Origin: a virus
Taxonomy: Duplodnaviria > Caudoviricetes
Strand: one strand, 5' to 3'
IMG/VR virus record: IMGVR_UViG_3300037424_000364
Span: 1 to 27,755 of that record
Length of the DNA: 27,755 bases
A model generated the notes under the pieces. That model had not been told where the DNA came from. It worked only from the letters and a program-made list of their open reading frames with translations, and made no database searches. Positions 9,192-27,755 of the stretch are shown here, piece by piece. Both the position numbers and the translations under genes were made by a program. Position 1 is the first letter of the stretch; each line of letters starts with the position of its first letter.

Positions 9192-9420
9192 CAATCAACT
9201 CCACTAGTGTTGCTCTTACTGTAATCACGGAACGCTTAACGCCAAGTTCACGTACCAAATTTCTTGCGAGTGAAGATACATTAACACCATTACGCTCACT
9301 CGCTAAGACAATAACCTCCATGACATACTCGCGCTCATCGTCAGTTAGCTCATCAATCCAACCTCGCGATCTAACAACTGACGAAGATTTCTCAATTAAC
9401 TCTTTCGCGTCACGAATCAT
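9172..9420 (-). CDS. Small helix-turn-helix-like protein
   Basis: 'VSSLARNLVRELGVKRSVITVRATL' helix pattern; ATGA coupling. Confidence 0.55.
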   Translation of the reverse strand: MIRDAKELIEKSSSVVRSRGWIDELTDDEREYVMEVIVLASERNGVNVSSLARNLVRELGVKRSVITVRATLVELIDGAKKA

Positions 9421-9920: not shown

Positions 9921-10300
9921 TCATCCCTTTCTATAATTAACATGACTCTCGGGTATTCTTTGTCAATAAGAAACCTTGGAGAGCGCCTCTCAAGGTGCTC
10001 GTAATCGTCATCAACTATCAGGCCAGAATCAACGATCCCGTCGTACACGGCCTTCAGCGATGCCATCGCGTTATCTTGGTCGCGTCGTCGCTGTTGCTTA
10101 TAGTGAAAAGTAACCTCGACAGTTGCGTGCCTCCACGGGCCGGTGGTAATGCACTCAGCCTCAACAGCTTCCTTGGCCAGCCTTCGATAACGCTTCGATG
10201 CCGACGCCTTCATGTACCTACCGCCCATAGAACCAACCGGACAGTTAGGTGATAGGACTTTAGCAGGCAATGGAAGCGTAATAACAACCGTTTCCCTCAC
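9917..10300 (-). CDS. rusA: RusA-like Holliday junction resolvase
   Basis: LPLP...SPN, RRRDQDNAMASLKAVYDGIVDSGLIVDDD motif. Confidence 0.8.
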   Translation of the reverse strand: MRETVVITLPLPAKVLSPNCPVGSMGGRYMKASASKRYRRLAKEAVEAECITTGPWRHATVEVTFHYKQQRRRDQDNAMASLKAVYDGIVDSGLIVDDDYEHLERRSPRFLIDKEYPRVMLIIERDE

Positions 10301-14140: not shown

Positions 14141-14319
14141 CACAACTCCCAGCCTCGATACTTACCGTACCCGTCACCCGACTCTGGATCGCGTTTTGCT
14201 TTGCGGCGCTCGGCCCTGGCCTTCCATCTCTTCAGCCAGTAATGGTAACTAAGTCGGTGCCGGCCCTTCGCGTAGATTCCGTTCGCATCAGCCTTCTCGA
14301 CTAGTCTTCCAATGCCCAT
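14140..14319 (-). CDS. Small basic hypothetical protein (cassette gene A, copy 2)
   Basis: TAATG/TGATG translational coupling; paralog at 14668-14841. Confidence 0.7.
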   Translation of the reverse strand: MGIGRLVEKADANGIYAKGRHRLSYHYWLKRWKARAERRKAKRDPESGDGYGKYRGWEL

Positions 14320-14546
14320 TACCACCTAGCCTCGAATTCAAAGACTCCGTAACCCAATCGCGACTTCAACTCTCGCACTGAACAGCTAGCGGTCGAATGC
14401 AGCTCGACTGAGTTACCAATCTTTCTGCGAACACGCGCCCACAGGGTAAGCCTCATGGATTCAAACCACTGAGCATCTCTCATTTCAAGTACGTATGATC
14501 GCCCTTGAAACCTTGGGTAGTTCGCAAGTAATGATGTTCTTCCCAT
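14319..14546 (-). CDS. Hypothetical protein (cassette gene B, copy 2)
   Basis: MGRTSLLANYP...SVRELKS..GYGVFEFEARW; paralog at 14841-15059. Confidence 0.75.
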   Translation of the reverse strand: MGRTSLLANYPRFQGRSYVLEMRDAQWFESMRLTLWARVRRKIGNSVELHSTASCSVRELKSRLGYGVFEFEARW

Positions 14547-14671
14547 CACTTATTCACCTTCGCAATAACTAGTAGTGCAAGGAACGAGATTGCAATAATA
14601 AGAACAATCCCAATAGTCTGTGCGATCTCGACGGCAATTGGTGCGACCGCATCTTGGATGCCATGGCTCAC
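14546..14671 (-). CDS. Small single-TM protein (cassette gene C, 5'-truncated copy)
   Basis: A GTG overlapping the stop of gene A' gives 41 aa (VSHGIQDAVAPIAVEIAQ + TM helix); start uncertain. Confidence 0.5.
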   Translation of the reverse strand: MSHGIQDAVAPIAVEIAQTIGIVLIIAISFLALLVIAKVNK

Positions 14672-14841
14672 CTCGCCTCTGGTACGCTCAACAGTGCGCT
14701 CGCCTCTGGATCGCGCTTCGCCTTGCGGCGCTCGGCCCTTGCCTTCCATCTCTTCAGCCAGTAGTGGTAGCTTAGGCGGTGCCGGCCCTTCGTGTAGATT
14801 CCGTTCGCGTCAGCCTTCTCGACAAGCCTTCCAATTCCCAT
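14668..14841 (-). CDS. Small basic protein (cassette gene A', copy 1, new C-terminus from the junction)
   Basis: Hand-translated 57 aa MGIGRLVEKADANGIYTKGRHRLSYHYWLKRWKARAERRKAKRDPEASALLSVPEAR; not in the ORF track. Confidence 0.65.
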   Translation of the reverse strand: MGIGRLVEKADANGIYTKGRHRLSYHYWLKRWKARAERRKAKRDPEASALLSVPEAR

Positions 14842-15059
14842 CACCACCTAGCCTCAAATTCAAACACACCGTATCCAGCCTGTGATTTCAATTCTCGTAC
14901 TGATATGTCCACGATCTTTGGATACCCAATAATCTTCCTGTAGGCCCTATCCGCAATCATGTCCTTCATTGATTCAAACCACTGAATGTCCCTTAGCAAC
15001 ATGACGTGCCGAGGTCCATGAAATGTTGGATAATTAGCAAGTAGGGATGTCCTGCCCAT
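14841..15059 (-). CDS. Hypothetical protein (cassette gene B, copy 1)
   Basis: Paralog of 14319-14546 with the same termini. Confidence 0.75.
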   Translation of the reverse strand: MGRTSLLANYPTFHGPRHVMLLRDIQWFESMKDMIADRAYRKIIGYPKIVDISVRELKSQAGYGVFEFEARW

Positions 15060-15256
15060 CACTTACTAATCCTCACAATGGCTAGCATCGCAATGAACGC
15101 GATCGCAATGATTAGTACGCACCCGACGGCCTGGGCGATTTCGACGGCAATTGGTGCGATTGCATCCTGAATGCCCTGACTAACCTCGCCCCTGGTGCGC
15201 TCTACGGTGCGCTCCACAAGATCGCGAATGAAGTCTCTAAGTGGTGCTCGCATCAT
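15059..15256 (-). CDS. Small single-TM protein (cassette gene C, full copy)
   Basis: ATGA overlap with the nuclease stop; C-terminal hydrophobic helix. Confidence 0.7.
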   Translation of the reverse strand: MMRAPLRDFIRDLVERTVERTRGEVSQGIQDAIAPIAVEIAQAVGCVLIIAIAFIAMLAIVRISK

Positions 15257-16611
15257 TCTTTTCCAGCGCGTATCTCCGCGCGCCTCTTCCACTGGTCCCC
15301 GGTTGCGTGCCACAGTACGGCAATGCGGCCACCCTCGAATTCCGCTACGTCGTGGTCGAACGACTGGCTTCTTGCGATTGGAGTCAGACCATTCAGTGGC
15401 TCGCTAAATGCGGACCTCCATGCGTCGAACAACTCATCTGGAAACCCGCTCCACACAAGACGCGAGTCCGGCTCCGGGTATCTGTCAAGAATGTCATCGA
15501 CGACATGGAACCCGGTAGCCCCAAACAGGTCGCTCGACGTTGCGATCATCTTATTGGTGAGCGCTGTGCTAGGTAACGACGCCAAGTCCCAGCTTGTCAG
15601 CCGTCCTGGTCCGCGGCCAGATTGCCACCTGTCATCCGATCCATCGCACTTGACGTTCTCGAATGTGATGTACGATCCGTTATCGTCCTGCCCGTAGTCA
15701 ACGGGCACTGCCTCATGCACGAGGCGCGGTAGGATCAGGTGATCCTGGCACGACTTTTGCTGATCGTTTCGCGATAGTGCCCGCTTATGCTTCTCACACT
15801 GCCACCGTGCAGAGTTCCCGTCGTCGATTACGGGAGTTGCGTGACAGCACTGCCGGCACGAGATCGACGGGACCGGAACTGTAATTAGCGGGTTACCGTT
15901 GCATATCGCCTTGGCATCGCACCATTGGCATTCGTACCAATCACATCGCTCAGACATCTTTTTAGGTGGCTCGTTGGACCTGATAATGGTCTCGGCGCGC
16001 TCCATTATGCACTCTGCATACAGCTTGTCGTAGTGTATGCGTTCAGTATATAGCTCGTCAGTGTCCTTGTTTCTGGCCAGGTACAGCGCACGAGTTAGCC
16101 CACCGAGATGCATATACGCCTGCATCTGAGCGTAATGTTGCGGCTTACAATTCTCGACGCCTTCCTTCTTCAGCTTCGTAAAAGACTTGGTATTATGCGT
16201 CTTAAACTCCAGTAGGTGCCATGTCTTTTGGGCCTCCGGCACACCAAGAGCGCATCCATCCATGTGACCTGAAAAGTGTCCACCAAGAGCATAAACCGCA
16301 AACTGGTTTCCGTGCTCGTCAACGTCATGCACTTCGCAGCCGATCGCCCTCAAGTCAGCGACGAATCTAGCTTCCTCAAGGTCACCGGTAGCGAACAGTC
16401 GGTACATGCGGCCGTCAAATTCCGTCTTACAGCAGTCTCGGAATGCGTACCACAGATAACGGGCACAAGGGTGTCCTATGATAGACGCCCCAAGGTATCC
16501 GCGCGACGGTTCTGCATCGCCACGGAGCTTATACGCTTCGTAGATTGCGGCCACCGTCTTCGACTCTTTCGGCAGTATGCCTGTCAGGTCGCCCACTACA
16601 TATTTCTCCAT
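15253..16611 (-). CDS. Cas4-like PD-(D/E)xK exonuclease (phage recombination nuclease)
   Basis: YLGASIIGHPCAR.LWY, GHMDG, LLEFKT, HYAQMQAYM, CQWC...C cluster cysteines. Confidence 0.88.
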   Translation of the reverse strand: MEKYVVGDLTGILPKESKTVAAIYEAYKLRGDAEPSRGYLGASIIGHPCARYLWYAFRDCCKTEFDGRMYRLFATGDLEEARFVADLRAIGCEVHDVDEHGNQFAVYALGGHFSGHMDGCALGVPEAQKTWHLLEFKTHNTKSFTKLKKEGVENCKPQHYAQMQAYMHLGGLTRALYLARNKDTDELYTERIHYDKLYAECIMERAETIIRSNEPPKKMSERCDWYECQWCDAKAICNGNPLITVPVPSISCRQCCHATPVIDDGNSARWQCEKHKRALSRNDQQKSCQDHLILPRLVHEAVPVDYGQDDNGSYITFENVKCDGSDDRWQSGRGPGRLTSWDLASLPSTALTNKMIATSSDLFGATGFHVVDDILDRYPEPDSRLVWSGFPDELFDAWRSAFSEPLNGLTPIARSQSFDHDVAEFEGGRIAVLWHATGDQWKRRAEIRAGKE

Positions 16612-16856
16612 GTTTCCATAATTGCATCCGCAACTGTCGATAGCGAGTAGCTTGTAATCACAAGGCTCCTGGCGTCTAGCGAATAGATGTACAGCTTCTC
16701 AGAGCTTAGGTTGAATACCACTTTCCCGTTCGGCTCATCAAACCACACTGACACCGTTTCGTCAGACCTACACCTGAAGTGTAGGTGCCCCAGCAACTCT
16801 CCAATCTGTCTGAAGAAGTCGTCATTCATCGTGTTAATGCGAATCATAGCCTTCAT
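16596..16856 (-). CDS. Hypothetical protein
   Basis: Packed ORF; ATG 16856 preferred. Confidence 0.6.
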   Translation of the reverse strand: MKAMIRINTMNDDFFRQIGELLGHLHFRCRSDETVSVWFDEPNGKVVFNLSSEKLYIYSLDARSLVITSYSLSTVADAIMETWRNM

Positions 16857-17055
16857 CGTGTCCCCACTTAACGAAATTTCGCATAGCAACACAGAACATT
16901 ACTGCCTCAATACAGATCAAGTCGAACCGCATCATGCGAACCCCCTCCGTGATCCAGCACGCTCCGCCGACCATGGTGAAAAGGAACGCCCACCTCTTTC
17001 GGTGACCGATGTTCCATGCACCAAAGATGATGAGAGCATTTCCGATCCAACCCAT
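16834..17055 (-). CDS. Small 3-TM protein, PnuC/SemiSWEET half-transporter-like
   Basis: GWIG..LIIFGAW.IG.RKRWAFL....G.ACW.......FD.......F..A.RNF.KW pattern, three hydrophobic segments. Confidence 0.6.
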   Translation of the reverse strand: MGWIGNALIIFGAWNIGHRKRWAFLFTMVGGACWITEGVRMMRFDLICIEAVMFCVAMRNFVKWGHDEGYDSH

Positions 17056-17233
17056 GTAAGCACCACAAGGTTAGTGGCAGTCCGGATGCTTTGCAGCCGG
17101 AAGGTTTCTGTCGCAACGCCGGCCCTCTTTTACTGCCACTAACCTTACGTGGGCGCGAGCGGTACGGATGAGAAGGCGGCGCTGCCAATAGCATTCAGCC
17201 TGGCCCGCATGACGACCATCCGTACCGCTCGCG
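17051..17233 (-). ncRNA. Candidate structured RNA: two adjacent long perfect stems with large loops
   Basis: 17-bp perfect IR at 17154-17170/17217-17233 and 15-bp perfect IR at 17067-17081/17132-17146, in the only sizeable gap of the replication operon. Confidence 0.6.
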
Positions 17234-17261
17234 TCCGTGCGAAGCGGGGCAACACGAGAAA

Positions 17262-17786
17262 TTATCGAGCCCAAGGCAGCTTGACTCCTGAAACGACGTG
17301 CGCCGGCGCTGTAGGTGCAGGCGGTTGAGATTCCTGCGAAGGTCGCATCTGAGCCTTACTTGGAGGTTCGATGTGTACATCCGATCCTCCGGCCGGCTCG
17401 TAAGTACGAACCTCGTTCTGATCCCCCTTAACCTTCACGCACGCCAGAGCAACTTTATTGACGAGTTGCGCGCTATCCGACAGCGCGGTGATCCCGACCG
17501 CACGGCACAGTGCCGAGAGGCATCTCCACCCGATCTCGACGCATTGCTGGTTCGGGTTGTCGATATTTACCTGGTCAAACATGACTCGTCCCTTAGCCTC
17601 TCCGTCAAGAACCTTCAGCTTCAACTTCAGGTACTTCCCAGTGCCTGCCTTCGTACCCTTGATCTCCGACTCCTCAACGAGAACCTTGTACTTGCCGGCC
17701 GGAAGGACCTTGAAATCCTCTTGCGGCTCTACCGCTGAAGGATCAAACACAGCACCACCAAACAGGCCACTCAAATCTCCACTCAT
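17262..17786 (-). CDS. DUF669-family protein (putative single-stranded DNA-binding protein)
   Basis: F..LPAGKY.V.VEESE.K.TKAGTG.YLKL.LKVLDG...GR..FD..N..NPN; directly downstream of the Sak4-like gene. Confidence 0.85.
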   Translation of the reverse strand: MSGDLSGLFGGAVFDPSAVEPQEDFKVLPAGKYKVLVEESEIKGTKAGTGKYLKLKLKVLDGEAKGRVMFDQVNIDNPNQQCVEIGWRCLSALCRAVGITALSDSAQLVNKVALACVKVKGDQNEVRTYEPAGGSDVHIEPPSKAQMRPSQESQPPAPTAPAHVVSGVKLPWAR

Positions 17787-17827
17787 GTTACAAATCTCTG
17801 GGTTTATTAAGTTGAACCGTTTACACG

Positions 17828-18604
17828 CTACGAAGCGGCAGCTACCGCATCCGAGAACGCTTGCCAAGAGAGCGGTAATTCATATGGCAATCGACCGTAC
17901 ACTCCTCGACCTCCACCTGGGTGAGCAGGTCGCTTCTGTGTATACACGAAGCGCTGGCCTCCGTCCGTGTCGATTCCAATGCCGCGCTTTTTGTTAAACC
18001 CAACATCCTCTTTCTTCACTACCACCTTCGTATTACAGAAGAGGATTACGTCTGCCCATCGGTATAGCAGGTTCGCTGCCTTGTCGTTCAGGTCGAATTG
18101 GTACTGGTCGTAACTGTCCCCACCAGGCTCATCGTGACGCTTTACGCGGACGTGTCCGATGATGATGCTCGCCATTTCTCGTGCTGTACGCAGCGCGTCG
18201 AGCCCCTCAGTGAGCATCCGCCACTGCGACAGCGCCTCGACGTAACCCTTGCCGTATCCTCCGTTCACCTTCTCAATCGACTGCGCGTTTCCATTCAGGC
18301 GGCAAGTCTCTGCCCAGATCAATGGCTCGCACGCGCTAGCCGAGTCAATGACTACCGTTCCGAATTCATGCTTCTGCGAGTACAGTGAAGATAGCGCCTC
18401 CATAACGTCGCCGTAGCTTCCGCACGGCGGAAACTTCGGTACGCTAATGGTATCGACCCCCTCTTCCCCCTTCACTGGGATGACGACAGGAGCGTCGGAA
18501 CACGACGCGAAAGTGCTCTTGCCGATCTTCTCAACACCAAGAAGGATTATTCGCGGTGCGCGAAGTCTAGCCTCAGCAGTGATTGACGCAAGGTCGAATG
18601 CCAT
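17828..18604 (-). CDS. AAA_24 / Sak4-like ATPase (single-strand annealing recombinase)
   Basis: G.EKIGKSTFA Walker A; VVIDS Walker B; GGYGKGY; IIGH; WADVILF. Confidence 0.9.
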   Translation of the reverse strand: MAFDLASITAEARLRAPRIILLGVEKIGKSTFASCSDAPVVIPVKGEEGVDTISVPKFPPCGSYGDVMEALSSLYSQKHEFGTVVIDSASACEPLIWAETCRLNGNAQSIEKVNGGYGKGYVEALSQWRMLTEGLDALRTAREMASIIIGHVRVKRHDEPGGDSYDQYQFDLNDKAANLLYRWADVILFCNTKVVVKKEDVGFNKKRGIGIDTDGGQRFVYTQKRPAHPGGGRGVYGRLPYELPLSWQAFSDAVAAAS

Positions 18605-18606
18605 GC

Positions 18607-18810
18607 CTACTCCACAGTTGGGTCGCGTAGTTCAATAACAAATCGCCGCCCGTCGTATTCCGAGTTGAACGCAATGTCGTTCACGATGTCGGAGAGTACG
18701 GCGGCTAACGAAATTCCGTCCGCGCCTTCCCCTTCACCAGTGAGAACTTCCTCAACGGTTCCGAGAAAGACCTCATCGCTGTCCGATCGTAAAATGACTC
18801 GCCTATTCAT
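18607..18810 (-). CDS. Hypothetical protein
   Basis: ATG 18810 after GAGGT; packed in the operon. Confidence 0.6.
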   Translation of the reverse strand: MNRRVILRSDSDEVFLGTVEEVLTGEGEGADGISLAAVLSDIVNDIAFNSEYDGRRFVIELRDPTVE

Positions 18811-19063
18811 TGCCAGTAACCTCAGCCCTAATTGCCGCGCGATACTGCCGCCGAGTCTTCGCAACTGCACTTGGTGATTCCGCCTTACGGCTTGCTATGA
18901 AGAGAACCAGGTCGGAATGTTGAATTCGCAGTCGCTTATGTTTTGCTGCGCGTGACACAGATACATCGACGGCGGGTAGTTGACCACGTTTAATTATGCG
19001 GTCAATCGTGACGCGCTTGACAGCGAGAATCTCTGCCGCATTGTCGAGTGTAATGAGGTGCAT
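18803..19063 (-). CDS. xis: Excisionase-like HTH_17 DNA-binding protein
   Basis: LITLDNAAEILAVKRVTIDRIIKRGQLPA...RLRI..SDL..FI pattern. Confidence 0.8.
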   Translation of the reverse strand: MHLITLDNAAEILAVKRVTIDRIIKRGQLPAVDVSVSRAAKHKRLRIQHSDLVLFIASRKAESPSAVAKTRRQYRAAIRAEVTGNE

Positions 19064-19076
19064 TCGCGCCGCTTCG

Positions 19077-19149
19077 GATCGAGGTCAAGCATTCAATACC
19101 TCGATCTTATCCTCACGCACTGAGAATTATGTCTCAGTTCGTGAGATAA
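19077..19149. promoter_or_regulatory. Two back-to-back inverted repeats upstream of xis (operator or RNA hairpins)
   Basis: GATCGAGGT-N12-ACCTCGATC (19077-19106) and imperfect TTATCCTCACGCACTGAGA-N6-TCTCAGTTCGTGAGATAA (19107-19149). Confidence 0.5.
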
Positions 19150-19150
19150 A

Positions 19151-19564
19151 TTACGACGCATCTCCCTCAAGGACAATGTACCCGCGTCGGTACATTACAG
19201 AGTATGGAATCCCTGATTCCATTAGGCACATCGAGAGACGAGAACATGCGCACCGTATGGCATGATCCGACACCTCAGAGCCCCAGGCAACGTCCTGCGC
19301 CTCTTCAACTGGCACGCGACCGCGATCCGCGAGCAGCCTGAGCAGTTTGAATTGAATCGGCGGCAGGCGGACAGAACGGCCGTCGAGCGAGACAGTCGCC
19401 GAGTCTGGCGAGAAGTACAGGCTCGGCACTGGATCTATTAGGCTGCGCCCAGCCGGATGGAAGATTGGGAAGTCTACCTCAATCATCCCGTCGTCGCGTA
19501 TGATTCCGCCCTGAATCGCAGAGATCGCATTCCTTGCTTCCGAGTCGGAAAGCAAAAGGATCAA
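19151..19564 (-). CDS. OmpR/PhoB-type winged-helix DNA-binding protein without a receiver domain
   Basis: V.LDGRSVRLPPIQFKLLRLLA....V......VAWG......IR...SRL...L........RRGY; TTG start after AAGGGG. Confidence 0.75.
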   Translation of the reverse strand: MILLLSDSEARNAISAIQGGIIRDDGMIEVDFPIFHPAGRSLIDPVPSLYFSPDSATVSLDGRSVRLPPIQFKLLRLLADRGRVPVEEAQDVAWGSEVSDHAIRCACSRLSMCLMESGIPYSVMYRRGYIVLEGDAS

Positions 19565-19644
19565 ATTTACCCCTTAGGCGCGCACTGCGATCGCAGTGTC
19601 CGTCTTGGCTGTTAGAATAGAAGGGCTAGAAAAGAAAACGCGAG

Positions 19645-19899
19645 TTACTCTTCAGCATCATCCTTGGATTCACTAAGAGTAATTAGGTCAACATCCTTCA
19701 GCAACACTTCGCGCTCTACCCCAAAGCCCTTGCAGAGACGGTCGAGTGTATCAAGAAAGATCCTCTTCGACGTTCCATCAATGATGTTACCGTAGGTGGT
19801 CGGAGCGATCCCGGCCGCCTGGGCAGCTTGTTCTTTTGTCCAGCGCTTCAGAACGCGCTGAATCTCGATATTGTCGATCAACTTTCTAGGAATTTCCAT
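19645..19899 (-). CDS. XRE/Cro-CI family HTH transcriptional regulator
   Basis: WTKEQAAQAAGIAPTTYGNIIDG......LDTLDRLCKGFGV; SD GGAGG before ATG 19899. Confidence 0.85.
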   Translation of the reverse strand: MEIPRKLIDNIEIQRVLKRWTKEQAAQAAGIAPTTYGNIIDGTSKRIFLDTLDRLCKGFGVEREVLLKDVDLITLSESKDDAEE

Positions 19900-21061
19900 A
19901 TCTCGCCTCCGTTCTGCCATAGAATAGCCAGTGTCGCACAGTATCGGCAATTACCTTCAGCCGCGACAACTCATTCAGGTTGAATTGAGAGTACACGCGC
20001 TTCTGAAGGCTCTTATTCGTATGCCCCATAGTGAGGTCAATCATAGCCTGGTCTGGCACGAGGTCAACCACCGTCCCATACACATGCCTTAACGATCCGA
20101 TGCCTGCACCTGCCCTGAGCGCTCCATATGCCCCCATGGAGCGTACAAACCCCCTTGACAGGTAGGACGTTCCACCGCACTTACTCATTGGACGACCGTG
20201 CGAATCGAGAATCAGCGTGCGCTCACCCTCTTGGGACGGCTCCCTCTTCGACTCGTATTCGCGTATAGCCTCGACCGTCTCGGGCCACAGAACCGCCATC
20301 CGCCTCCGGCCTGTCTTGACTCTCCTGAAGTCGTGATACGGCGTGTCGCCATCCAAGTGAATTCGATCCGTCGTGATCGCGATTGTGTCAGCAGGGTAGA
20401 ATCCGCAATTCACGCCGAGTAGGATCGCCAGCCGTATTGTAGGTGTCGATGCGTTGATTGCCGCGAGGATTGGCTCACGATCAATCCACCTGCTAATGCC
20501 TCGCTCATCGCGATCCGCCTCAACCTCATGGATAGCTGGTGGGTGAAACCTCGGGCCAAAGTCAATCTCGCCGGATACCATCCTCATCTGCCGGCCCCAC
20601 TTCAGTATGCTGCGAACGCCGACGATGATCTTCCCTTGAGTTGCTAGCGAGAGCTTAGACTCCAAGTGCTTTTCTAGCGCTGCGAAATGCGACGGCTTAA
20701 GGCTTGACACGGCAACTACTGATATCCCTGATTCGATGCACGCTGCCCTAACTGCCGTGTAGTTGTACAGTGTACCGCGTGCCGCCTTGCGAGCAGCTAT
20801 TCGTCCTATCATGTCGTCGATATAATTGTCCACGAGACATGCCACAGTCAGTGATCTATCAGCCGCCGGCGGGACGACTCCGGCTATCAGATAGTCCTTC
20901 TCTCTGAGCCACAGATTCAGTGCCCCCTGAACATTGGCGAGCGGACCGAAGTAGTGAACCACGCCGCGAATCTTCTTGGCCCACTGGCCGTTCGGGTGTG
21001 GAGTAAGTGGGAAGTCAGGATGCTCAGACTTCCACTTCCGTGCGTCGTCAAGCTTACTCAT
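19886..21061 (-). CDS. int: Tyrosine recombinase / phage integrase
   Basis: N-terminal arm-binding-type segment PDFPLTPHPNGQWAKKIRG..HYFG; RVKTG (Lys), LWPET, SLRH, MGH, VY (Tyr). Confidence 0.88.
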   Translation of the reverse strand: MSKLDDARKWKSEHPDFPLTPHPNGQWAKKIRGVVHYFGPLANVQGALNLWLREKDYLIAGVVPPAADRSLTVACLVDNYIDDMIGRIAARKAARGTLYNYTAVRAACIESGISVVAVSSLKPSHFAALEKHLESKLSLATQGKIIVGVRSILKWGRQMRMVSGEIDFGPRFHPPAIHEVEADRDERGISRWIDREPILAAINASTPTIRLAILLGVNCGFYPADTIAITTDRIHLDGDTPYHDFRRVKTGRRRMAVLWPETVEAIREYESKREPSQEGERTLILDSHGRPMSKCGGTSYLSRGFVRSMGAYGALRAGAGIGSLRHVYGTVVDLVPDQAMIDLTMGHTNKSLQKRVYSQFNLNELSRLKVIADTVRHWLFYGRTEARYGNS

Positions 21062-21495
21062 CTAGCGGACGCCTCCACCTTACACCCCAAACAAATCAGC
21101 CCGTGAAACTCCCCTTTATCGTCGATATCTAACTCTAGCCGGCCGATGCTTCCATCTTCGCTACCGCAAAGCCGGCACGCACCGCCCTGCCGATTGTACG
21201 CTTGCTCAATCTCCGACGCCTTAATGCGGATTCCACCACGCATCCAAGGCTTCCACTTAGCCTTTAGAAGCGATTCCCAATAATACGACACCAGCTTGTC
21301 GCCGTTTTCGCTTCTCCACTTCTTTTGGTATTCAGCAAGATGCGCGGTATCCAGCCTAGGTTTACGTGCAATATACTTGCAATTGTTACAAACGTGAACG
21401 CGGCACACGCCGTTACCCGACTTCGCCTCACGAAACGAAGTGATCGACTTCTCTTTTCCACAGCGTTTACACGTTCTAGTCGCCTCTGCGATCAT
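21058..21495 (-). CDS. Zn-finger protein, degenerate endonuclease VII/HNH-like
   Basis: CKRC.KEK....F, CNNC, Q.GACRLCG, GLICLGC; the DH and C..CN catalytic residues are replaced. Confidence 0.65.
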   Translation of the reverse strand: MIAEATRTCKRCGKEKSITSFREAKSGNGVCRVHVCNNCKYIARKPRLDTAHLAEYQKKWRSENGDKLVSYYWESLLKAKWKPWMRGGIRIKASEIEQAYNRQGGACRLCGSEDGSIGRLELDIDDKGEFHGLICLGCKVEASAR

Positions 21496-21498
21496 GGT

Positions 21499-21666
21499 TC
21501 ATTTCTCCGTTGTCCAGAATTTCTTGTCGTCAACGTGCAGGAAACTCTTGTCTACCCCAACGCGGTCGCTCTCCGCCTCTGCCTTAGTGTCATATGGCCC
21601 ACAGTCTTCAGTACCCCATGCCCCGACAATCCACCATCCATCCTCGCGTTTGGTTATGTCGCTCAT
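21499..21666 (-). CDS. Hypothetical protein (55 aa, GPYxTxxEA motif)
   Basis: Hand-translated MSDITKREDGWWIVGAWGTEDCGPYDTKAEAESDRVGVDKSFLHVDDKKFWTTEK; GGAG upstream; fills the gap between its neighbours. Confidence 0.75.
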   Translation of the reverse strand: MSDITKREDGWWIVGAWGTEDCGPYDTKAEAESDRVGVDKSFLHVDDKKFWTTEK

Positions 21667-21667
21667 G

Positions 21668-22282
21668 TCAGTCTCTCCACGAAAACAGGTTGACGCCGTG
21701 ACCGGTCCACTTCGGCCGTATCACCTCCGGCTTGCCTATCACCTCATATCCATCCTTCTCTAGCTGTACAGTGATCTCCATTGCCACATCAGTGCTACAC
21801 TCGCCGGACGCATAATCATGGTCTTCAATTCCGCCTACGCTTGCGGAACACCCCTTGAATTCACACGCACAAAACCACCACTCCCACCCATTTTCGTACC
21901 ACTTCACTAGCTGGTCGATCCGCCTACGCATAGACAAAGCGACCATCTCGCGTGCCACTTGTCGTGACGCCCCGTTGTCGCGATACCACTTTTCCTCGCC
22001 GTCGTCCCAAGGCATGGTAATGACGACTCGGCGTCGTTTCCCTGAATCCCAGCAACAGCCCTCACTATCAATCTCTCGGCCGTGCCCGATCGGCCTTGCC
22101 TCATGCTCATACATATCGCTCCACTCCCATGGAGCAGAAGACATGCCGTCATCTGGCTCAATCTCGACGGCCGCTAGTATGTCCGCGAAGTCTACCTCGT
22201 CAGGCTCGACGATTGTTGTTGTGGTTGTCCGAATTAGCTTCCCGCAAGATCGGATTACGGTTGTCATCGTTTCGGTTTTCAT
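21668..22282 (-). CDS. Hypothetical early protein
   Basis: 204-aa acidic ORF in the operon. Confidence 0.75.
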   Translation of the reverse strand: MKTETMTTVIRSCGKLIRTTTTTIVEPDEVDFADILAAVEIEPDDGMSSAPWEWSDMYEHEARPIGHGREIDSEGCCWDSGKRRRVVITMPWDDGEEKWYRDNGASRQVAREMVALSMRRRIDQLVKWYENGWEWWFCACEFKGCSASVGGIEDHDYASGECSTDVAMEITVQLEKDGYEVIGKPEVIRPKWTGHGVNLFSWRD

Positions 22283-22289
22283 AGCGTCC

Positions 22290-22523
22290 CTATTGGTTCA
22301 AGGTTCGGATAATCCGTCTTTCATTGCACTTCGGGCAAACACCAAGGTGAGTGTACCAGTCCAATACTGACTTTCCGTTAGCGTTTTCTGTCGGAACCTC
22401 AACAAGAGACTCCTCATACGACTGATAGAATTCTACGTTAATCCAACCATCTGGAATAGAGTCAACTCCGTCGAACTCCTCAGTGTCACAGTACATACAC
22501 GCCAATCGAATTTTTCCGCTCAT
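22290..22523 (-). CDS. Small Zn-binding hypothetical protein
   Basis: CMYC...CPKC; SD GAGGT. Confidence 0.75.
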   Translation of the reverse strand: MSGKIRLACMYCDTEEFDGVDSIPDGWINVEFYQSYEESLVEVPTENANGKSVLDWYTHLGVCPKCNERRIIRTLNQ

Positions 22524-22550
22524 TCTGTTACCTCATTGTGAAAAGGAGCC

Positions 22551-22601
22551 GGCTAACCGTTTCATTTCCCTAGCGAACTAAGGGGAATGGAACGGGCAGC
22601 C
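22551..22601 (-). ncRNA. Conserved intergenic hairpin, copy E1
   Basis: GGCU-GC-CCGUU...UUCG loop...AACGG-UU-AGCC. Confidence 0.6.
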
Positions 22602-22614
22602 TTGCCCGTGCCGG

Positions 22615-23541
22615 CTACTCAATTCCTTCCACTCCAGCAATTTTCGCAATCCGTTCAATCTCGGCATAGGCCACGCTATGGCAGCCGGCCTTGAAGTTTT
22701 CCTTGTCGTCAACCGCGTCAAGGTGAAACATTCCAAGTCGAATCTCGCGGCCGTTCCGTTCCCAGGACCGCCCCTTATCGTGCAATACCCGGATAAGTCG
22801 AAACGCCTTGATGCCATGGTCAAGCGGGAAGTCCGCACCATGGCTTGTCTCGACACTCTCGCCGACGATTCGCAGACGACACGGCAAGCGATAAAATCCG
22901 CTGTCACGACTACCGCCATCAATCCACGAGGATAGATGCTTAGAAAGGCCTGCAAGGTACTTTCGATCTTCCTCTTCCGCCTTAATGCGTGCAGCCTCCA
23001 ATTCCTTTTCGTGCTTTGCATAGGCCCGTCGTTGACGTTCAGATTCTCTTTCGGTTAGCTTCTTAACATGCTCTTTAGCGTGGTCAAGGTCGGGCATTGT
23101 GATACGTCCACTCAGCCCAAAGAAAACCGCTAGGGCGTTTCCATCTTCCACTAGTTCACGCATGATCCGTTCATAGTGGTCCTTATATACCCTAGCCTTG
23201 ACATACTTTTTTAGCGTTTCGAGAATCCGTATTCGGTAACTTTCGAGTATTACCGCCGGCCTATTCCAGTCTTTCGGGTCTGCGTGAAAAACAGTCAAGT
23301 GACAGCACGCACGGGATACATTATTTATGTGCCCATTGGTGGTGATGCTATGACTTCGCGTCGTCATTAGCACTGCATCACCACGTTTGGTTTTGACGTG
23401 CCTTGCCACCGGAAAGTGCATTCCATAGCTGTAAATCGTATTCCCCTCAAAGTAGAAATTCCGCGTTGGAGTCTTCGCCCAGTCCTGGGACTTGTTGGCC
23501 CAAAGGTGAGCCACCATTTCAGACTTTACGATACGCTTCAT
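22615..23541 (-). CDS. Hypothetical early protein (308 aa)
   Basis: SD GAGGG; VAHLWAN...YFEG.TIYSYG.HFP.A N-terminal block; central coiled coil. Confidence 0.8.
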   Translation of the reverse strand: MKRIVKSEMVAHLWANKSQDWAKTPTRNFYFEGNTIYSYGMHFPVARHVKTKRGDAVLMTTRSHSITTNGHINNVSRACCHLTVFHADPKDWNRPAVILESYRIRILETLKKYVKARVYKDHYERIMRELVEDGNALAVFFGLSGRITMPDLDHAKEHVKKLTERESERQRRAYAKHEKELEAARIKAEEEDRKYLAGLSKHLSSWIDGGSRDSGFYRLPCRLRIVGESVETSHGADFPLDHGIKAFRLIRVLHDKGRSWERNGREIRLGMFHLDAVDDKENFKAGCHSVAYAEIERIAKIAGVEGIE

Positions 23542-23572
23542 TATGTCCCTCTTAATGTCTGGTTCGCGTTGC

Positions 23573-23623
23573 TGGACAAACCGATACGCCCCACTTTTCG
23601 AGTGAAGCGTATCGGGCCGTCCA
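23573..23623 (-). ncRNA. Conserved intergenic hairpin, copy E2
   Basis: UGGACG-GC-CCGAUACGC...GCGUAUCGG-UU-UGUCCA. Confidence 0.65.
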
Positions 23624-23637
23624 TAGCCCGTGGTTGG

Positions 23638-24129
23638 CTAAATGTCAATCCACTCCTCATCATCATCATCCAATAATTCCCCGTCGTCGTCAAACTCTTC
23701 ATCTTCATATACGGGCGGAAATTCTCCGCAATCCACAAGCCGGCCGCAATGCTCACACACAGTATAGTGCCAACATTCCGGGTCGACCGGGGTAAATTCC
23801 CCGCAATTGCAGCATTTGATTTCCCCCTCATCTTCGCAGTGTTCGTTTTCCGCTTCTTCTAACCAATCTCCCCATGAGCTAGAGAATACCTCCCCGTGTC
23901 CCTCTTGGCATACTGTCAGATTGTACGTGTCGCCAGTATTGAGGTAGGCTAACTCTCTATCGCAAGTGGACACATACTCGATTCCAAAATGTGAGTGTCC
24001 CCAACCGGCCCGGTTGATAAAACGCTCCGCTGCTTCGATACCGCCAACGTGTCTGTTAGAAAATTCTACCGCCCTGTTGCATACCTCATCGAAATTCTTT
24101 CCGTATTGTCGTCGAATCATAGTTGCCAT
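23638..24129 (-). CDS. Hypothetical protein with Zn ribbon and very acidic tail
   Basis: CCNC...CEHC; tail EDEEFDDDGELLDDDDEEW; SD GAGGT. Confidence 0.8.
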   Translation of the reverse strand: MATMIRRQYGKNFDEVCNRAVEFSNRHVGGIEAAERFINRAGWGHSHFGIEYVSTCDRELAYLNTGDTYNLTVCQEGHGEVFSSSWGDWLEEAENEHCEDEGEIKCCNCGEFTPVDPECWHYTVCEHCGRLVDCGEFPPVYEDEEFDDDGELLDDDDEEWIDI

Positions 24130-24182
24130 TGCATCTACCTCTTTTCTCGTTTCTTAATAAATCTTAAAAACTCATCGTCTAG

Positions 24183-24287
24183 CTATTCACGTTCTGCAAA
24201 GTAGTATCCGAATTCTGGTGAATTCAGATACTCAAAAAACTCGTCAACAATGCGATGCAAATCATCTACATACTTTTCAATTGTCAC
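24183..24287 (-). CDS. Small acidic ORF (34 aa; 50 codons if the internal TAG is read through to 24135)
   Basis: Strong SD AGGAGG + GTG; MTIEKYVDDLHRIVDEFFEYLNSPEFGYYFAERE*. Confidence 0.55.
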   Translation of the reverse strand: MTIEKYVDDLHRIVDEFFEYLNSPEFGYYFAERE

Positions 24288-24303
24288 TCGTTTTACCCTC
24301 CTA

Positions 24304-24876
24304 TCACTCCGTTTCGACCATATCACCACCACAACCGCAAGTAGGTGGGCCTATTTCATCCAACCACTTGCGTGTCATTCTCGCAACACACCCACAACTA
24401 CCGCACTCCACCTTAATCATCCGTGTCCCCTGCTTTTTCGGGGCGTTGGATTCGGTCAATACGGCATGTGGATACGGCCCGATGGTTTCGGCAATCCCCT
24501 TTAGCGTTTCGGTCAATGCTTCCCCAGGTTTCGTGGCGGTCATCCCCCCCTCTAGCCCCATGGCGACCGCGACCGCCCGAAAACGCCCCTTGTGTCCTTC
24601 CGCCAACCCAACCGAACAATGCACTAGTTCGTGCAATAGCGTTGCTGATACGGCTACTGGATCGCTTAGCACGGGGGAAATGAACACCTCGAAAGACCCG
24701 TCGCCACTATTTTGTGACGACCATGCCTCACCTATTCGCCTGTTTTTCTTTGCTAGTGCCCCCTTGCTAGGCCACGAACACGACGCACGAACCTTTGCGG
24801 GGACGGGGGATGATCGGTCCGCAAACATCGGCCGCAATGCGGCTATACACTCTGCTAGCCAGTCTTCACGATTCAT
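24304..24876 (-). CDS. SprT-like zinc metalloprotease with C-terminal Zn ribbon
   Basis: IGEAW...EVFISP...TLLHELVH...GHKGRF; C..CG...C.CG. Confidence 0.82.
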   Translation of the reverse strand: MNREDWLAECIAALRPMFADRSSPVPAKVRASCSWPSKGALAKKNRRIGEAWSSQNSGDGSFEVFISPVLSDPVAVSATLLHELVHCSVGLAEGHKGRFRAVAVAMGLEGGMTATKPGEALTETLKGIAETIGPYPHAVLTESNAPKKQGTRMIKVECGSCGCVARMTRKWLDEIGPPTCGCGGDMVETE

Positions 24877-24891
24877 AACTCACCTTTTAGT

Positions 24892-24949
24892 TAGATTGAC
24901 CGGCCGGTCCCCCTTGCAATGGAACGAGGGAAACGGGCTGGACAATCCA
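24892..24949 (-). ncRNA. Conserved intergenic hairpin, divergent copy E3
   Basis: UGGAUUG-UCCA-GC-CCG...CGG-CC-GGU-CAAUCUA; preceded by CUAUGGA like E2 and E4. Confidence 0.4.
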
Positions 24950-24962
24950 TTGTCCATAGTGG

Positions 24963-25250
24963 CTAGAATTCGATTGACCCCCAACCACGTATAGCGAGCG
25001 GTACGCGATCGGCCCAAATGGCCTTGTAGGTGTTTTCTCTCCCGCAAGTGGCTTGACCCTTTGCGGCGTCTTTCGATTCTGCCAATACGTACAATGCCCT
25101 ACGGCCGCGAATTGGGCAAAACAACTCCACCCTATACAATCCCAATTCCTGCCTATTCCCTTCCCCGTGTTCCCTTGTGAGGCAGAGAGAATAATTTTCT
25201 CTCTCCGATACATCTATTCTTGCACAGTCTGTTTTTAGAACTTTAGCCAT
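24963..25250 (-). CDS. Hypothetical early protein
   Basis: SD GAGGGG, ATG start. Confidence 0.7.
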   Translation of the reverse strand: MAKVLKTDCARIDVSERENYSLCLTREHGEGNRQELGLYRVELFCPIRGRRALYVLAESKDAAKGQATCGRENTYKAIWADRVPLAIRGWGSIEF

Positions 25251-25278
25251 AGCATCCCCTCGTTACGTGTAAACGGTT

Positions 25279-25331
25279 CGGATAAGCCACCTCGCCACAT
25301 CGGCACATAATGCGGCGGGGTGGGCTATCCA
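25279..25331 (-). ncRNA. Conserved intergenic hairpin, copy E4
   Basis: UGGAUA-GC-CCACC...GGUGG-CU-UAUCCG. Confidence 0.65.
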
Positions 25332-25345
25332 TAGCCTTTTGTGTG

Positions 25346-25552
25346 CTATTCGGCTATCTCGCTTAGAGGAACGGGTCTAAGCTTCCGTAGGTCGTACAGT
25401 TTACGTTGGTACTTGCATGATGCCTTGCAAGCCGCATACGATCGGTAGATAAGCATCCCTTCGTCTTCCTCGAATTCCGGATTACAGTCGTGTGGCAATA
25501 CCGGCTTTTCATTCTTGAAACACACAACCCAATACTCTTTCTGATTTTTCAT
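25346..25552 (-). CDS. Hypothetical early protein
   Basis: SD GAGGT, ATG start. Confidence 0.72.
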   Translation of the reverse strand: MKNQKEYWVVCFKNEKPVLPHDCNPEFEEDEGMLIYRSYAACKASCKYQRKLYDLRKLRPVPLSEIAE

Positions 25553-25579
25553 TTCCGATACCTCATAAAAGTGGTGTTG

Positions 25580-25629
25580 ACGGATAAGCCGTCACAACTC
25601 TCCGGAGAGAATTGGGACGGGCTATCCAT
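25580..25629 (-). ncRNA. Conserved intergenic hairpin, copy E5
   Basis: AUGGAUA-GC-CCGUC...GACGG-CU-UAUCCGU. Confidence 0.65.
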
Positions 25630-25641
25630 GCCCAATTGACC

Positions 25642-26136
25642 CTAGCCGTCGATGGTTGACCATCCGTAGGGGACGTATCCGACGGGGATACGTGGAAAGT
25701 TATGGGCCGGCTTAGGTTCCGGTTCCGATTCTGGCAACTCGACAAATTCGGCCCGACCATCGACGAAGAAGGGCATGCACTTCTGACCGGTTGCAATGCC
25801 GATGCGTTTGACGTATCCCCTTGCGTCGTCAAGGCGTGAACGATAGCACGCAACGGTCAACCGTTGGCTAGCATCGGCAAACCGCTTCCCGTCGGCGTCA
25901 TACCAAACACCTGTTGACACACCATCCAAGGTGTACCCGCCAAAGTATCGGCCAACGGTTTCCAGCAATGCGGAAACGACCGATTGCGGGATAGCTTCCC
26001 CGTTGTTGAATCGCACGGGGATGAGAGTTGACCAAACGACGGTATCTGCCGGCTTGGGTTCCGCCGGCTTGGTACAGCGGTGGAAGCGTTCTATCGCTTC
26101 GTCGTTAAGTCTGGACATGGTTTCAAGACAATGCAT
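25642..26136 (-). CDS. Hypothetical early protein
   Basis: SD GGAG; 'LIPVRFNNG..I.......FGGYT....G.W...DG' block. Confidence 0.75.
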   Translation of the reverse strand: MHCLETMSRLNDEAIERFHRCTKPAEPKPADTVVWSTLIPVRFNNGEAIPQSVVSALLETVGRYFGGYTLDGVSTGVWYDADGKRFADASQRLTVACYRSRLDDARGYVKRIGIATGQKCMPFFVDGRAEFVELPESEPEPKPAHNFPRIPVGYVPYGWSTIDG

Positions 26137-26164
26137 AGGTGTACTCCAAGGTTAATTGTGGCTT

Positions 26165-26224
26165 GCCTCATCAGTAGCGTGTGGACCACACACTCTAGAC
26201 CGACACTCCGTTGTCGGTTTCGGC
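26165..26224 (-). ncRNA. Hammerhead ribozyme, type II
   Basis: Minus strand reads GCC-GAAA-CCGACA(ACGGAG)UGUCGG-UC^UAGAGUGUG(UGGUC)CACACGCUA-CUGAUGA-GGC: complete catalytic core, three stems, GUC cleavage triplet. Confidence 0.9.
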
Positions 26225-26230
26225 TACTCG

Positions 26231-26332
26231 TTACCTCCAGACTGTAATGGGGTAGGCGACGGCAGCAACCGTCACGATGAGAATCAACCAATCGTACACA
26301 CGTGCCAAGATCATATCAGGTGTCGGGTGCAT
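26231..26332 (-). CDS. Small single-TM peptide (33 aa)
   Basis: MHPTPDMILARVYDWLILIVTVAAVAYPITVWR; GAGGG upstream; fills the gap before the ribozyme. Confidence 0.6.
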   Translation of the reverse strand: MHPTPDMILARVYDWLILIVTVAAVAYPITVWR

Positions 26333-26336
26333 CGAA

Positions 26337-26624
26337 TCAACCCTCATTCTCACAAAGGAAGTGGTAGAGCGTTTCAACGTCGATAACAATCATGCCAGTT
26401 GCACTATCACAGCTAGCAAAGACTTTACATGATGAAATGCGACCGACTACGGTTCCGCAATAGACAAGGCAGATTGGCTTGAACTGGTCGATGTCAGCCG
26501 ATCGACAAAACAACGCTAATTCAGATGGAGAAATGCCGCGTTCAATTAACGCTTGCCAAGCGTCGGCCGGCGGAGCGGTTTCCGTGCGTGCTAGTTCTTC
26601 GATAAGCTTTTCGTGGTAGGTCAT
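26337..26624 (-). CDS. Hypothetical protein, first gene of the leftward early operon
   Basis: SD AGGGGAG, ATG start. Confidence 0.72.
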   Translation of the reverse strand: MTYHEKLIEELARTETAPPADAWQALIERGISPSELALFCRSADIDQFKPICLVYCGTVVGRISSCKVFASCDSATGMIVIDVETLYHFLCENEG

Positions 26625-26659
26625 TGTTGCACTCCCCTGTAGATTCTGTTGACTAATGC

Positions 26660-26700
26660 CTCTATATACATACTAGCACGGATTAGTAGCCGTGCAGGCC
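26660..26700 (-). promoter_or_regulatory. Putative early promoter with an overlapping operator dyad
   Basis: Minus-strand CTGCAC-N16-TAGTAT; IR GCACGG-N8-CCGTGC (26676-26695) spans the spacer. Confidence 0.4.
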
Positions 26701-26967
26701 TATTTTCCTTGTGTTGGCTGGAATTCCTTTGTGTTGGGTGGAATTGTAGTGGTTAGGTAATTTGGGTAATTTTGTGGTTTGACAGTATATATATGTATGT
26801 TTGAAAGTTTACTGTTTTTTAGGCTTGTAGTCAAACTGACCGCCGCCGGCCTAATTCGACTGTAGTCAAATTGATATCACCCGATCGGGTGCTCTAGTCG
26901 TATCATACACCTACTGTGGTGGCATTACACCATGCGTCAGTATGTTTACTAGTAGTGCCACACGCCA

Positions 26968-27024
26968 TAACCTGTTGATACATAACAAGTTAGGTGCATA
27001 GGCGACAACCATGGTACGACAACC
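26968..27024. repeat. Orphan att-arm-like module: 25-bp dyad plus two CGACAACC repeats
   Basis: TAACCTGTTGATACATAACAAGTTA (26968-26992); CGACAACC at 27003-27010 and 27017-27024. Confidence 0.6.
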
Positions 27025-27409
27025 ACAGGCGTTATTCTAGGGCATTATGTAACCGACATGGGTGGTATCCGGGGGGCCCCATTGCCACTCAGATGTTACC
27101 ACGCCCCCCCCGTTAGCGTGCGACACGGTAGTATCTATCCCCTACGGACAGCCATACTGAATTGCGGGAATAGGCGTCGGGGGCCCCAGTCGCCAGGGAC
27201 CCATCGCCATGGAAGCGCGTCAGAGGCCCACAGCGCCTCGCTAGAGCGCGCCTAGCGCTTTCGACGGGAAAAGAGTCAAGGGACCCATCGCGATGCGTTA
27301 GAATGGCGCTGTAGAGCGCCAATGGGAATCGAGGTTTTGCTCGCCACTCATTAGTGGCATTGGGCGTGTCTCGCGCGCGAGGATTAGTCTAAGACACACA
27401 TAAAGACAT

Positions 27410-27553
27410 TGGAAGATAGGAAAATGGAATATGCTCAGACACCCAGGTATAAACCCGGACAGAGACGGATTCAACCTAACATGAAGATTACTGGAAGATA
27501 GAAAAGTAGAAAGATGCTTTTTTGACCCAGGTACATAGACCAGGACGGATTCA
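27410..27553. repeat. Imperfect tandem repeat of about 82-bp period
   Basis: TGGAAGATAG...ATGCT...ACCCAGGTA...GACGGATTCA occurs twice (starts 27410 and 27492). Confidence 0.75.
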
Positions 27554-27659
27554 TTATAAATGACAGGTAAGCCTCACGTATACGAGACGAATCATCACTA
27601 AATTAGTTAACAAGAGGAGAGGAGGCGAGACCATGGAAAGTAAGTCTTTCTTCTTCCGG

Positions 27660-27712
27660 TAGTAATAGTAGTATATAATAATATATATATATTATATAAT
27701 TATTATCCTATA
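27660..27712. other. Almost pure A/T tract (possible origin unwinding element)
   Basis: TATATAATAATATATATATATTATATAATATTATTAT with dyad symmetry, downstream of the 82-bp repeats. Confidence 0.5.
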
Positions 27713-27755
27713 CTCAATACCAATACCAATCTCATCCCCATCCCCATGCCATACC

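Follow-up and report, generated by a model that had tools for sequence, protein, structure and literature searches.

A covarying RNA hairpin family set just behind stop codons in phage small-gene arrays and its possible role as an RNase III processing signal

The window analysed here is a linear viral record of 27,755 bases (Caudoviricetes; IMG/VR record IMGVR_UViG_3300037424_000364; completeness estimate 54%). On its minus strand, five gaps within an array of small genes each hold a hairpin, and these hairpins belong to a real, apparently uncatalogued RNA family, with at least 35 distinct copies spread over at least 14 loci in phages or prophages, of which seven lie within planctomycete genomes. 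A first, sequence-only reading of the window had described an RNA structure punctuating the array, and such a structure, conserved and functional, is supported by the number of copies and by seven significantly covarying base pairs. Besides a long irregular hairpin, the element has an upstream GGGC segment complementary to a GCCC within that hairpin, and in most copies keeps a nearly constant distance to the preceding gene's stop codon. The element could well be a T7-like processing signal for the host RNase III, with a cut predicted from its sequence at NGG^AYWGCCC and/or WRUCC^N near the helix base, although we hold this reading tentatively. Among the three roles first offered (an RNase site, a protein-binding or antitermination element, a catalytic RNA), the RNase site fits best and the ribozyme finds little support.

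All five minus-strand hairpins proposed for the window fold at their coordinates. With their 5′ extensions, they have z-scores of −5.1, −4.5, −4.0, −6.7 and −2.4 against dinucleotide shuffles, and a strict descriptor finds four of the five copies and none in 300 shuffled windows. The core of about 50 nucleotides (nt) delimited at first is correct but its 5′ boundary is not: the full element of about 55–60 nt reaches 4–8 nt further 5′, through the GGGC segment. E1 (25580–25633, minus strand, as are all five) consists of the GGGC segment (25633–25630) and the long hairpin, scores 59.6 bits as a training copy of the covariance model described below, and lies 8 nt after the TAG of open reading frame (ORF) 25642–26136. 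E2 (25279–25337), also 8 nt after a TAG (ORF 25346–25552), carries an AGGC variant before its long hairpin, and its alternative stem retains three of four pairs and grows inward by two. In E3 (24892–24956), which precedes a 190-aa gene and follows the TAG of ORF 24963–25250 by 7 nt, the long hairpin is joined by a compensatory GGAC/GUCC alternative stem. E4 (23573–23630) has the GGGC/GCCC alternative stem and the long hairpin, precedes a 308-aa gene and stands 8 nt after the TAG of ORF 23638–24129. E5 (22549–22609), 7 nt after the TAG of ORF 22615–23541, is the weakest copy (z-score −2.4). As first proposed, the hairpins are not intrinsic terminators: no minus-strand terminator-like site was found in 19000–27755, and the 8 nt after each hairpin contain 0–3 U.

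From its base, the long helix comprises a 6-bp basal stem, a G·Y pair, a C·N mismatch, two C-G pairs, 7 bp, a mismatch and 5–6 bp. In an alignment of 26 copies made from sequence only, 92.5% of 545 cells are paired and two-sided changes occur in 14 of 21 pairs; when the partners are slid against each other, pairing falls to 34–46%. Seven pairs (alignment columns 30-68, 33-65, 31-67, 23-75, 34-64, 40-58 and 39-59) reach E ≤ 0.05 under both of two custom tree-aware nulls (60 replicates each, used instead of R-scape), which upholds the claim that the stems differ yet stay paired. The adjacent columns 16–17, flagged by one null only, reflect a one-base alignment shift. G·U pairs outnumber A·C combinations by 42 to 15 (25 to 15 without the conserved G·Y column 25-73), and every curated copy is on the same strand as its flanking genes, which speaks for an RNA. 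The fixed 2×2 mismatch (GC/YU) that had been described is instead a G·U or G-C pair (26/26) next to a 1×1 mismatch (25/26), and it varies; the ‘GC/CC’ assigned to E3 is GUCC/GGUC in the homologous register. In 4 of 26 copies the second C faces a base other than G, while GCCC stays fixed.

Two further helix positions are near-invariant, C38-G60 (26/26) and U41-A57 (20/26). Invariant bases at fixed helix positions would suit a binding site for a phage or host protein, acting in antitermination, translational control or non-catalytic RNase III binding; a related idea is a DNA operator with the palindrome GGGC-N6-8-GCCC. The phage is temperate, and in three relatives a small GNRA-type hairpin often stands directly 3′ of the element, both of which agree with such a site. 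We nevertheless judge it distinctly unlikely: no candidate protein was identified, the palindrome has a variable spacer (6–8 nt, once 12), which is unusual for an operator, and the covariation of the long helix, its preference for G·U over A·C and its invariable sense orientation also count against it.

The family was assembled by pattern scans, a descriptor filter and a covariance model built from the 26 aligned copies, with identical re-assemblies counted once. Two of the pattern scans covered 53/64 and 14/64 of the database parts, and the family totals are lower bounds. The sequence-only reading had suggested a covariance-model search for homologues, and its yield of at least 35 copies includes, besides the five in the window, 6 in G001, 2 each in G006, L142, G003 and G102, 4 each in L146 and G005, 3 each in L298 and G004, and 1 each in G028 and G037. 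Nine copies were not used in training, and in three of these the basal stem is degenerate; loci L204–L232 were assessed by the descriptor and not by the model. On the basis of folding and model score, all but L043 and L047 of the 47 matches in the first pattern scan were dropped as chance, as were most of the at least 121, at least 122 and 98 loci of later scans. L137 was dropped for want of a model match, and L501 and L502 because they score 12–14 bits on the opposite strand, with no upstream stem or stop. Scans that did not require GGGC or CCC returned known copies or chance matches only, and no real copy without the upstream stem. Four degenerate copies (L465:9308-9383, L242:12890-12974, L146:2727-2807 and L467:7266-7352) keep a short GGGC/GCCC-type stem while the basal stem has decayed, and three of the four also keep the stop spacing.

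No match to a known Rfam family, which would have removed the novelty, was found: no Rfam model matches the copies at E ≤ 5 in the window, E ≤ 1 in L043 or E ≤ 0.5 in six further loci. Five exact core strings had no match in the literature, and no core string occurs in the tables of Fremin 2023 (PMC10690425), a catalogue whose alignments may nevertheless list the family. The model matched 5 of 151 genomes sampled from the family Thermoguttaceae, 2 of 151 from its order and 1 of 151 from its class, the order- and class-level samples adding no copies to those known. Because the motif-bearing host genomes are planctomycete (they include one Planctomycetota and one Thermoguttaceae) and many loci have genes in common with the window, the host of the phage is likely a planctomycete of the family Thermoguttaceae.

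The most regular feature of the position of the element is its distance from the upstream stop codon, which precedes GGGC by 7–9 nt in 27 of the 35 copies and by 6–12 nt in 31; the remaining four distances are 22, 22, 72 and 72 nt. In the nine held-out copies the distances are 11, 7, 7, 9, 6, 7, 72, 8 and 9 nt. ORFs were used in no search step. The 34 upstream proteins fall into 27 families, identity among the spacers is 35% and each of the three stop codons is used; thus, it is the length of the spacer and not its sequence that is conserved. The next start codon, to which the hairpins had first been anchored, is a poorer reference: the distances of 27, 28, 15, 31 and 27 nt noted for the window are right, but those across the family range from 0 to 70 nt (quartiles 21–32, automatic calls). 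The stop is TAG before 23 of the 35 copies, compared with 32 of the 112 other ORFs called automatically, although the copies are not independent.

UAG-rich stops, a 7–9-nt spacer and a possible H-type pseudoknot recall signals for stop-codon readthrough or frameshifting. Gammaretroviral readthrough pseudoknots and three-stem frameshift pseudoknots have in common with the element the UAG, the spacer of about 8 nt, the possible H-type topology and a hairpin in loop 3. The element differs from both in that its host is bacterial, no frame or product is conserved and the pseudoknot is only predicted. The frame to the next gene is random (8, 7 and 12 of 27), an open in-frame fusion occurs in only 4 of 27 cases, and, because the spacer varies, the frame changes from copy to copy across the conserved core and leaves no conserved extension peptide. 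A recoding signal of this type is thus very improbable.

The GGGC segment lies 6–8 nt (once 12) before GCCC; all four pairs between the two can form in 33 of 35 copies, where chance would give 0.04 per copy. We take this complementarity to represent an alternative stem or a pseudoknot, as the sequences suggest. Among 13 copies found without the GGGC requirement (5 in the window, 5 in L043, 1 in L141 and 2 in L146), 11 are fully paired, and in the other two (E2 and G001f) one pair is lost and the stem grows inward. Compensatory changes are seen in E3 (GGAC/GUCC) and in L467 (GGGG/CCCC), and L483 has a wobble version (GGGC/GCUC). In the folds predicted for partial transcripts of 10 copies, the short stem is dominant through most or part of the series in seven; in two it appears late or briefly, and in one to two it is weak or does not form. 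Checked as an H-type three-stem pseudoknot, the element has a covarying pair (23-75) in S2, the basal stem, and two compensatory events plus one wobble, without significant covariation, in S1, the GGGC/GCCC stem. Depending on the assumed penalty, the pseudoknot differs from the hairpin by −5 to +3 or by +2 to +11 kcal/mol, which makes it near-equal or clearly disfavoured.

A structure at this position may also act uncleaved. Standing at the mRNA entry of a terminating ribosome, the long hairpin or a three-stem H-type pseudoknot (S1 GGGC/GCCC, a 1–2-nt loop, S2 and the inner hairpin in loop 3) could be a roadblock or insulator that blocks re-initiation or slows termination and protects the 3′ end of the upstream message, in the manner of a ribosome termination structure or of a repetitive extragenic palindrome close to a stop. 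The 7–9-nt spacing suits this role, as does the excess of TAG, with the copies again not being independent, and the pseudoknot and hairpin energies are within the error of the assumed penalties. Structures just 3′ of stops limit re-initiation, according to parts of Chemla et al. (PMC7518266), and passages of a eukaryotic review (PMC13517186) place stimulatory structures at the entry channel when the spacer is at least 8 nt. Like the ribosome termination structure described in those parts of Chemla et al., the element is a stable structure right after a stop, in gaps of more than 25 nt; as presented there, that structure is a statistical folding signal without conserved sequence or fold, whereas the element is a defined family. 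It speaks against this role that a generic insulator requires no conserved sequence. In E2, G001f and the second copy of L142 the short stem grows into S2, suggesting a mutually exclusive hairpin rather than a fixed pseudoknot, and the displaced linker is GGYY, unlike the A-rich loop usual in pseudoknot triplexes. We consider an uncleaved insulator rather unlikely.

The case for RNase III comes from the fit of the long helix to published cleavage rules. As set out in the relevant parts of PMC1540722, an 11-bp helix with a 5′ single-stranded extension suffices for cleavage; the proximal box reads G-C, W-W, A-U, W-W (W being A or U), with G-C or C-G at position 2 blocking binding, and the middle box holds a C-G pair. 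Aquifex RNase III, in the portion of PMC3074117 that bears on this, follows the proximal rule and disregards the distal box. We mapped the boxes onto positions +1 to +7 from the numbering of the first paper; the placement of the distal box is putative. Out of 22 registers, only a cut before column 22 fits all four determinants: +1 is W-W in 25 of 26 copies, +3 is W-W in 19 (both G or C in one), +4 is G in all 26 (G-C in 9, G·U in 17) and +7 is C-G in 22. Central registers mostly have G-C or C-G at +3. Helix length agrees with the rules as well, with 21 paired columns and about 18 bp apical to the predicted bond. In the window, the bonds predicted to be cut lie between 25626 and 25625 and between 25582 and 25581 in E1, 25329/25328 and 25280/25279 in E2, 24947/24946 and 24893/24892 in E3, and 23621/23620 and 23574/23573 in E4. 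The bases to which the upstream GGGC is complementary are precisely +4 to +7 of this register. RNase III (TIGR02191) is found in all five motif-bearing host genomes, above the cut-off in four; the four proteins read have the double-stranded-RNA-binding domain motif NYKSxLQQ in common. RNase J, the 5′-to-3′ exoribonuclease that the host would need if the element were an exoribonuclease-resistant RNA, was above the cut-off in none of these five genomes, which are incomplete.

T7 early RNase III signals (with R1.1 as model substrate and uR1.1 as its minimal form) are likewise two-turn irregular intergenic hairpins without a U-tail, and one register of the element matches them at proximal-box positions 1, 2 and 4 and at the middle-box C-G pair. 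Unlike these signals, the element is G+C-rich, its predicted bonds lie at the helix base and not in an internal loop, and the distal box is unmatched. We know of no T7 site with a competing GGGC stem or a fixed stop-codon spacing.

Several observations weigh against the RNase III reading. The column-shuffle value for the register score (p = 0.0055) is optimistic, because the four determinants were picked after seeing the data. Proximal position 3, A-U in E. coli, is U-A or C-G here (+2), and at the inferred distal-box positions U-A occurs in 9 of 26 copies and U·G in none (E. coli rules). No A or U stands at +3 in 9 of 35 copies, which mostly have G, inhibitory according to the E. coli study; among the nine held-out copies, only four have W there. 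E5, whose basal stem lacks the conserved A-U pair at +1, fits the register worst. The predicted bonds are 2–3 bp from the helix base, leaving a single half-site, and the host rRNA processing stems (one 16S and one 23S, judged by eye, cut sites unmapped) are A/U-rich and without the motif. The competing stem has its own weaknesses. The count of 33 of 35 is inflated, as several queries and the model included GGGC; the stem, being too invariant, has no significant covariation, and its outer extension pair is present in 22 of 35 copies (p = 0.11, not significant). Nested folding favours the long hairpin, the alternative stem reaching a probability of 0–0.19 in the full element. Finally, RNase III alone leaves the invariant GGGC unexplained.

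Repetitive extragenic palindromes (REPs) and the doublets built from them (REPINs) offer another comparison. They too are imperfect hairpins near stops, and their layout of short versus long hairpins can be seen in a doublet of Gemmiger. In E. coli REPs, a motif of G·U and a pyrimidine mismatch resembles that of the element. The element would then be a domesticated repeat, or a recombination landmark for the shuffling of gene cassettes, with mRNA stabilization as a side effect; the GTAG-led inverted doublet of Gemmiger fits the search pattern, with model scores of 20–28 bits, and one and the same gene is accompanied by the element in some phages but not in others. The element, however, has neither GTAG at the foot of its stem nor a second short hairpin, Y1_Tnp is absent in three of three phage records, and, unlike REPs, the element has a single orientation and covarying inner stems and is unrepeated in the host, where its 5′ half gave 10 and 12 matches against 9 and 15 for controls. 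As spacers and inner stems are also too diverged for easy homologous exchange, we give this origin little credence. Contigs of the one DNA run had no joints, which counts neither for nor against any reading. The GTAG-led, REPIN-like doublets themselves were seen in L406, L428, L434 and L442 (Gemmiger) and in the gut contigs L245, L253, L255 and L266; they have short hairpins of their own, and their long stem contains a C·C mismatch. Integron attC sites, sigma-54 promoters, N4-type hairpin promoters and the twister, pistol and twister sister ribozymes were rejected on anatomy.

The window also contains a type II hammerhead ribozyme (26156–26225, minus strand; Rfam Hammerhead_II RF02276, 36.7 bits against a gathering threshold of 37, E = 3.6 × 10−4), its only Rfam match. 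As first reported, it ends 28 nt before an ATG, measured from the end of the closing GGC in the Rfam alignment; it starts 5 nt downstream of where a 33-aa ORF (26231–26332) stops, and is a neighbour of the hairpin family and not a member. Its cleavage triplet is GUC, and its 3′ tail shows complementarity to a stem loop. Searches with Rfam in seven motif-bearing loci (L043 and six more) and by pattern in 14 other loci gave no hammerhead. As none was found in these related arrays, the pairing of one ribozyme with one motif is unsupported as a general design and is peculiar to the window.

The element occupies the same kind of site as this hammerhead, a pseudoknot topology is possible and invariant bases are present, which would accord with a new self-cleaving class having an HDV-like (hepatitis delta virus) scaffold of P1, P2 and P4 without P3. 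The order of P1-, P2- and P4-like elements is indeed that of HDV-like ribozymes, but P3/L3, P1.1 and the conserved catalytic C in J4/2 are missing, with no room for P3 between the basal-stem strand and GCCC. In the pseudoknot model, the only conserved unpaired bases are A18, G71 and the pyrimidine at 73, and the linker position that would correspond to the catalytic C is C in 11, U in 11, A in 3 and G in 1 of 26 copies. With no Rfam ribozyme match and no hammerheads accompanying the family at other loci, self-cleavage seems improbable.

Another repeated motif, AAY-GCY-GNRA-type loop-RGY-AAG, shows a compensatory change from C-G to U-A when phages are compared. It occurs in six copies on the minus strand of L242 (the right end of G001) and at L146:2804, L146:5408, L298:2155 and L298:2496, and is absent from the window. 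Its position is often immediately 3′ of the main element; in G001, two copies stand before a start codon in the manner of a ribosome-binding site, and others do not. The motif may represent a boxB-like site, or else a tetraloop that docks on the main helix.

The five hairpins lie in an array of co-oriented small genes (21499–26624, minus strand), mostly unassigned to families: the 190-aa protein belongs to phrog_6361 and the 308-aa protein to phrog_7247, and the remaining genes fall below the family cut-off. Downstream of the array, also on the minus strand (8112–21495), are genes for an HNH/endonuclease VII protein, a tyrosine integrase, a Sak4-like protein, SSB, a Cas4-like exonuclease, a helicase and a primase, a context that indicates a temperate phage. 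In the complete relative G001, the array is within the last 5 kb of a 50,141-base genome bearing terminal repeats. The array may be early, as its position suggests; the ‘early operon’ described at first is compatible with that position, but its timing is deduced from position only. A scan for sigma-70 promoters was at chance level (9 found, 8.1 expected).

Homologues of several array genes are present in motif-bearing loci. At the nucleotide level, blastn against 50,697 phage records gave no match, and a scan with the 308-aa protein gave no locus. Relatives of the 190-aa protein occur in 62 loci, none of which the covariance model matches (E ≤ 1), so this gene is far more widespread than the motif. 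Two minus-strand ORFs of fewer than 40 aa in the array (24172–24288 and 26231–26332) fall under the cut-off of the ORF list, and the gaps flanking the first hold no hairpin element. The non-coding end upstream of the array has several G+C-rich hairpins (27070–27300) and a direct repeat in two copies 82 nt apart (27410–27429 and 27492–27511), whose further flanks are shared; this end may be a terminus or a regulatory region. In L141, L367, L405, L481 and L486, a gene resembling a serine recombinase (resolvase), as read by eye, follows the array in the place taken in the window by the HNH and tyrosine integrase genes. In the host genome G003, the 16S and 23S genes are on separate contigs (G003:C1:414869-416395 and G003:C5:91447-94367); their leaders resemble each other, and each gene has a long processing stem rich in A and U.

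If the element is an RNase III signal, a cut near the helix base would divide the polycistronic message gene by gene and determine how stable the fragments are, as in T7, whose early message is described in parts of PMC3867540 as a polycistronic RNA with five RNase III signals. A single cut in the 3′ arm would leave a protective hairpin on the upstream message, in line with the principle of 3′-end hairpin protection found in the same parts of that source; a cut in the 5′ arm or a double cut would not. We further speculate that the short GGGC stem forms first, as a short hairpin or within a three-stem pseudoknot, and would mask recognition bases +4 to +7. A ribosome paused on the stop codon would hold GGGC at its entry channel, judging from the channel length in the portion consulted of the eukaryotic review PMC13517186, and would thereby favour the cleavable long helix. 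Such gating of cleavage by the terminating ribosome is a doubtful but serious possibility. A wider form of the idea, which we rate as equally doubtful, is a class of translation-sensing RNA switches in which a three-stem pseudoknot at the mRNA entry of the terminating ribosome would hide the RNase III site until the upstream gene has been translated; the phage would then process its message gene by gene according to ribosome traffic. Our literature search found no report joining RNase III, a pseudoknot and translation termination.

Repeated hairpins between phage early genes are familiar, and as plain RNase III sites the present ones would be a further example, in an unstudied host group. What goes beyond the familiar is a competing stem over exactly the predicted recognition bases, together with a stop spacing kept across 27 unrelated families of upstream genes. 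If termination is coupled to cleavage, the element would offer a compact system in which to follow how ribosomes steer the maturation of polycistronic messages, and would serve as a first model of the specificity of planctomycete RNase III.

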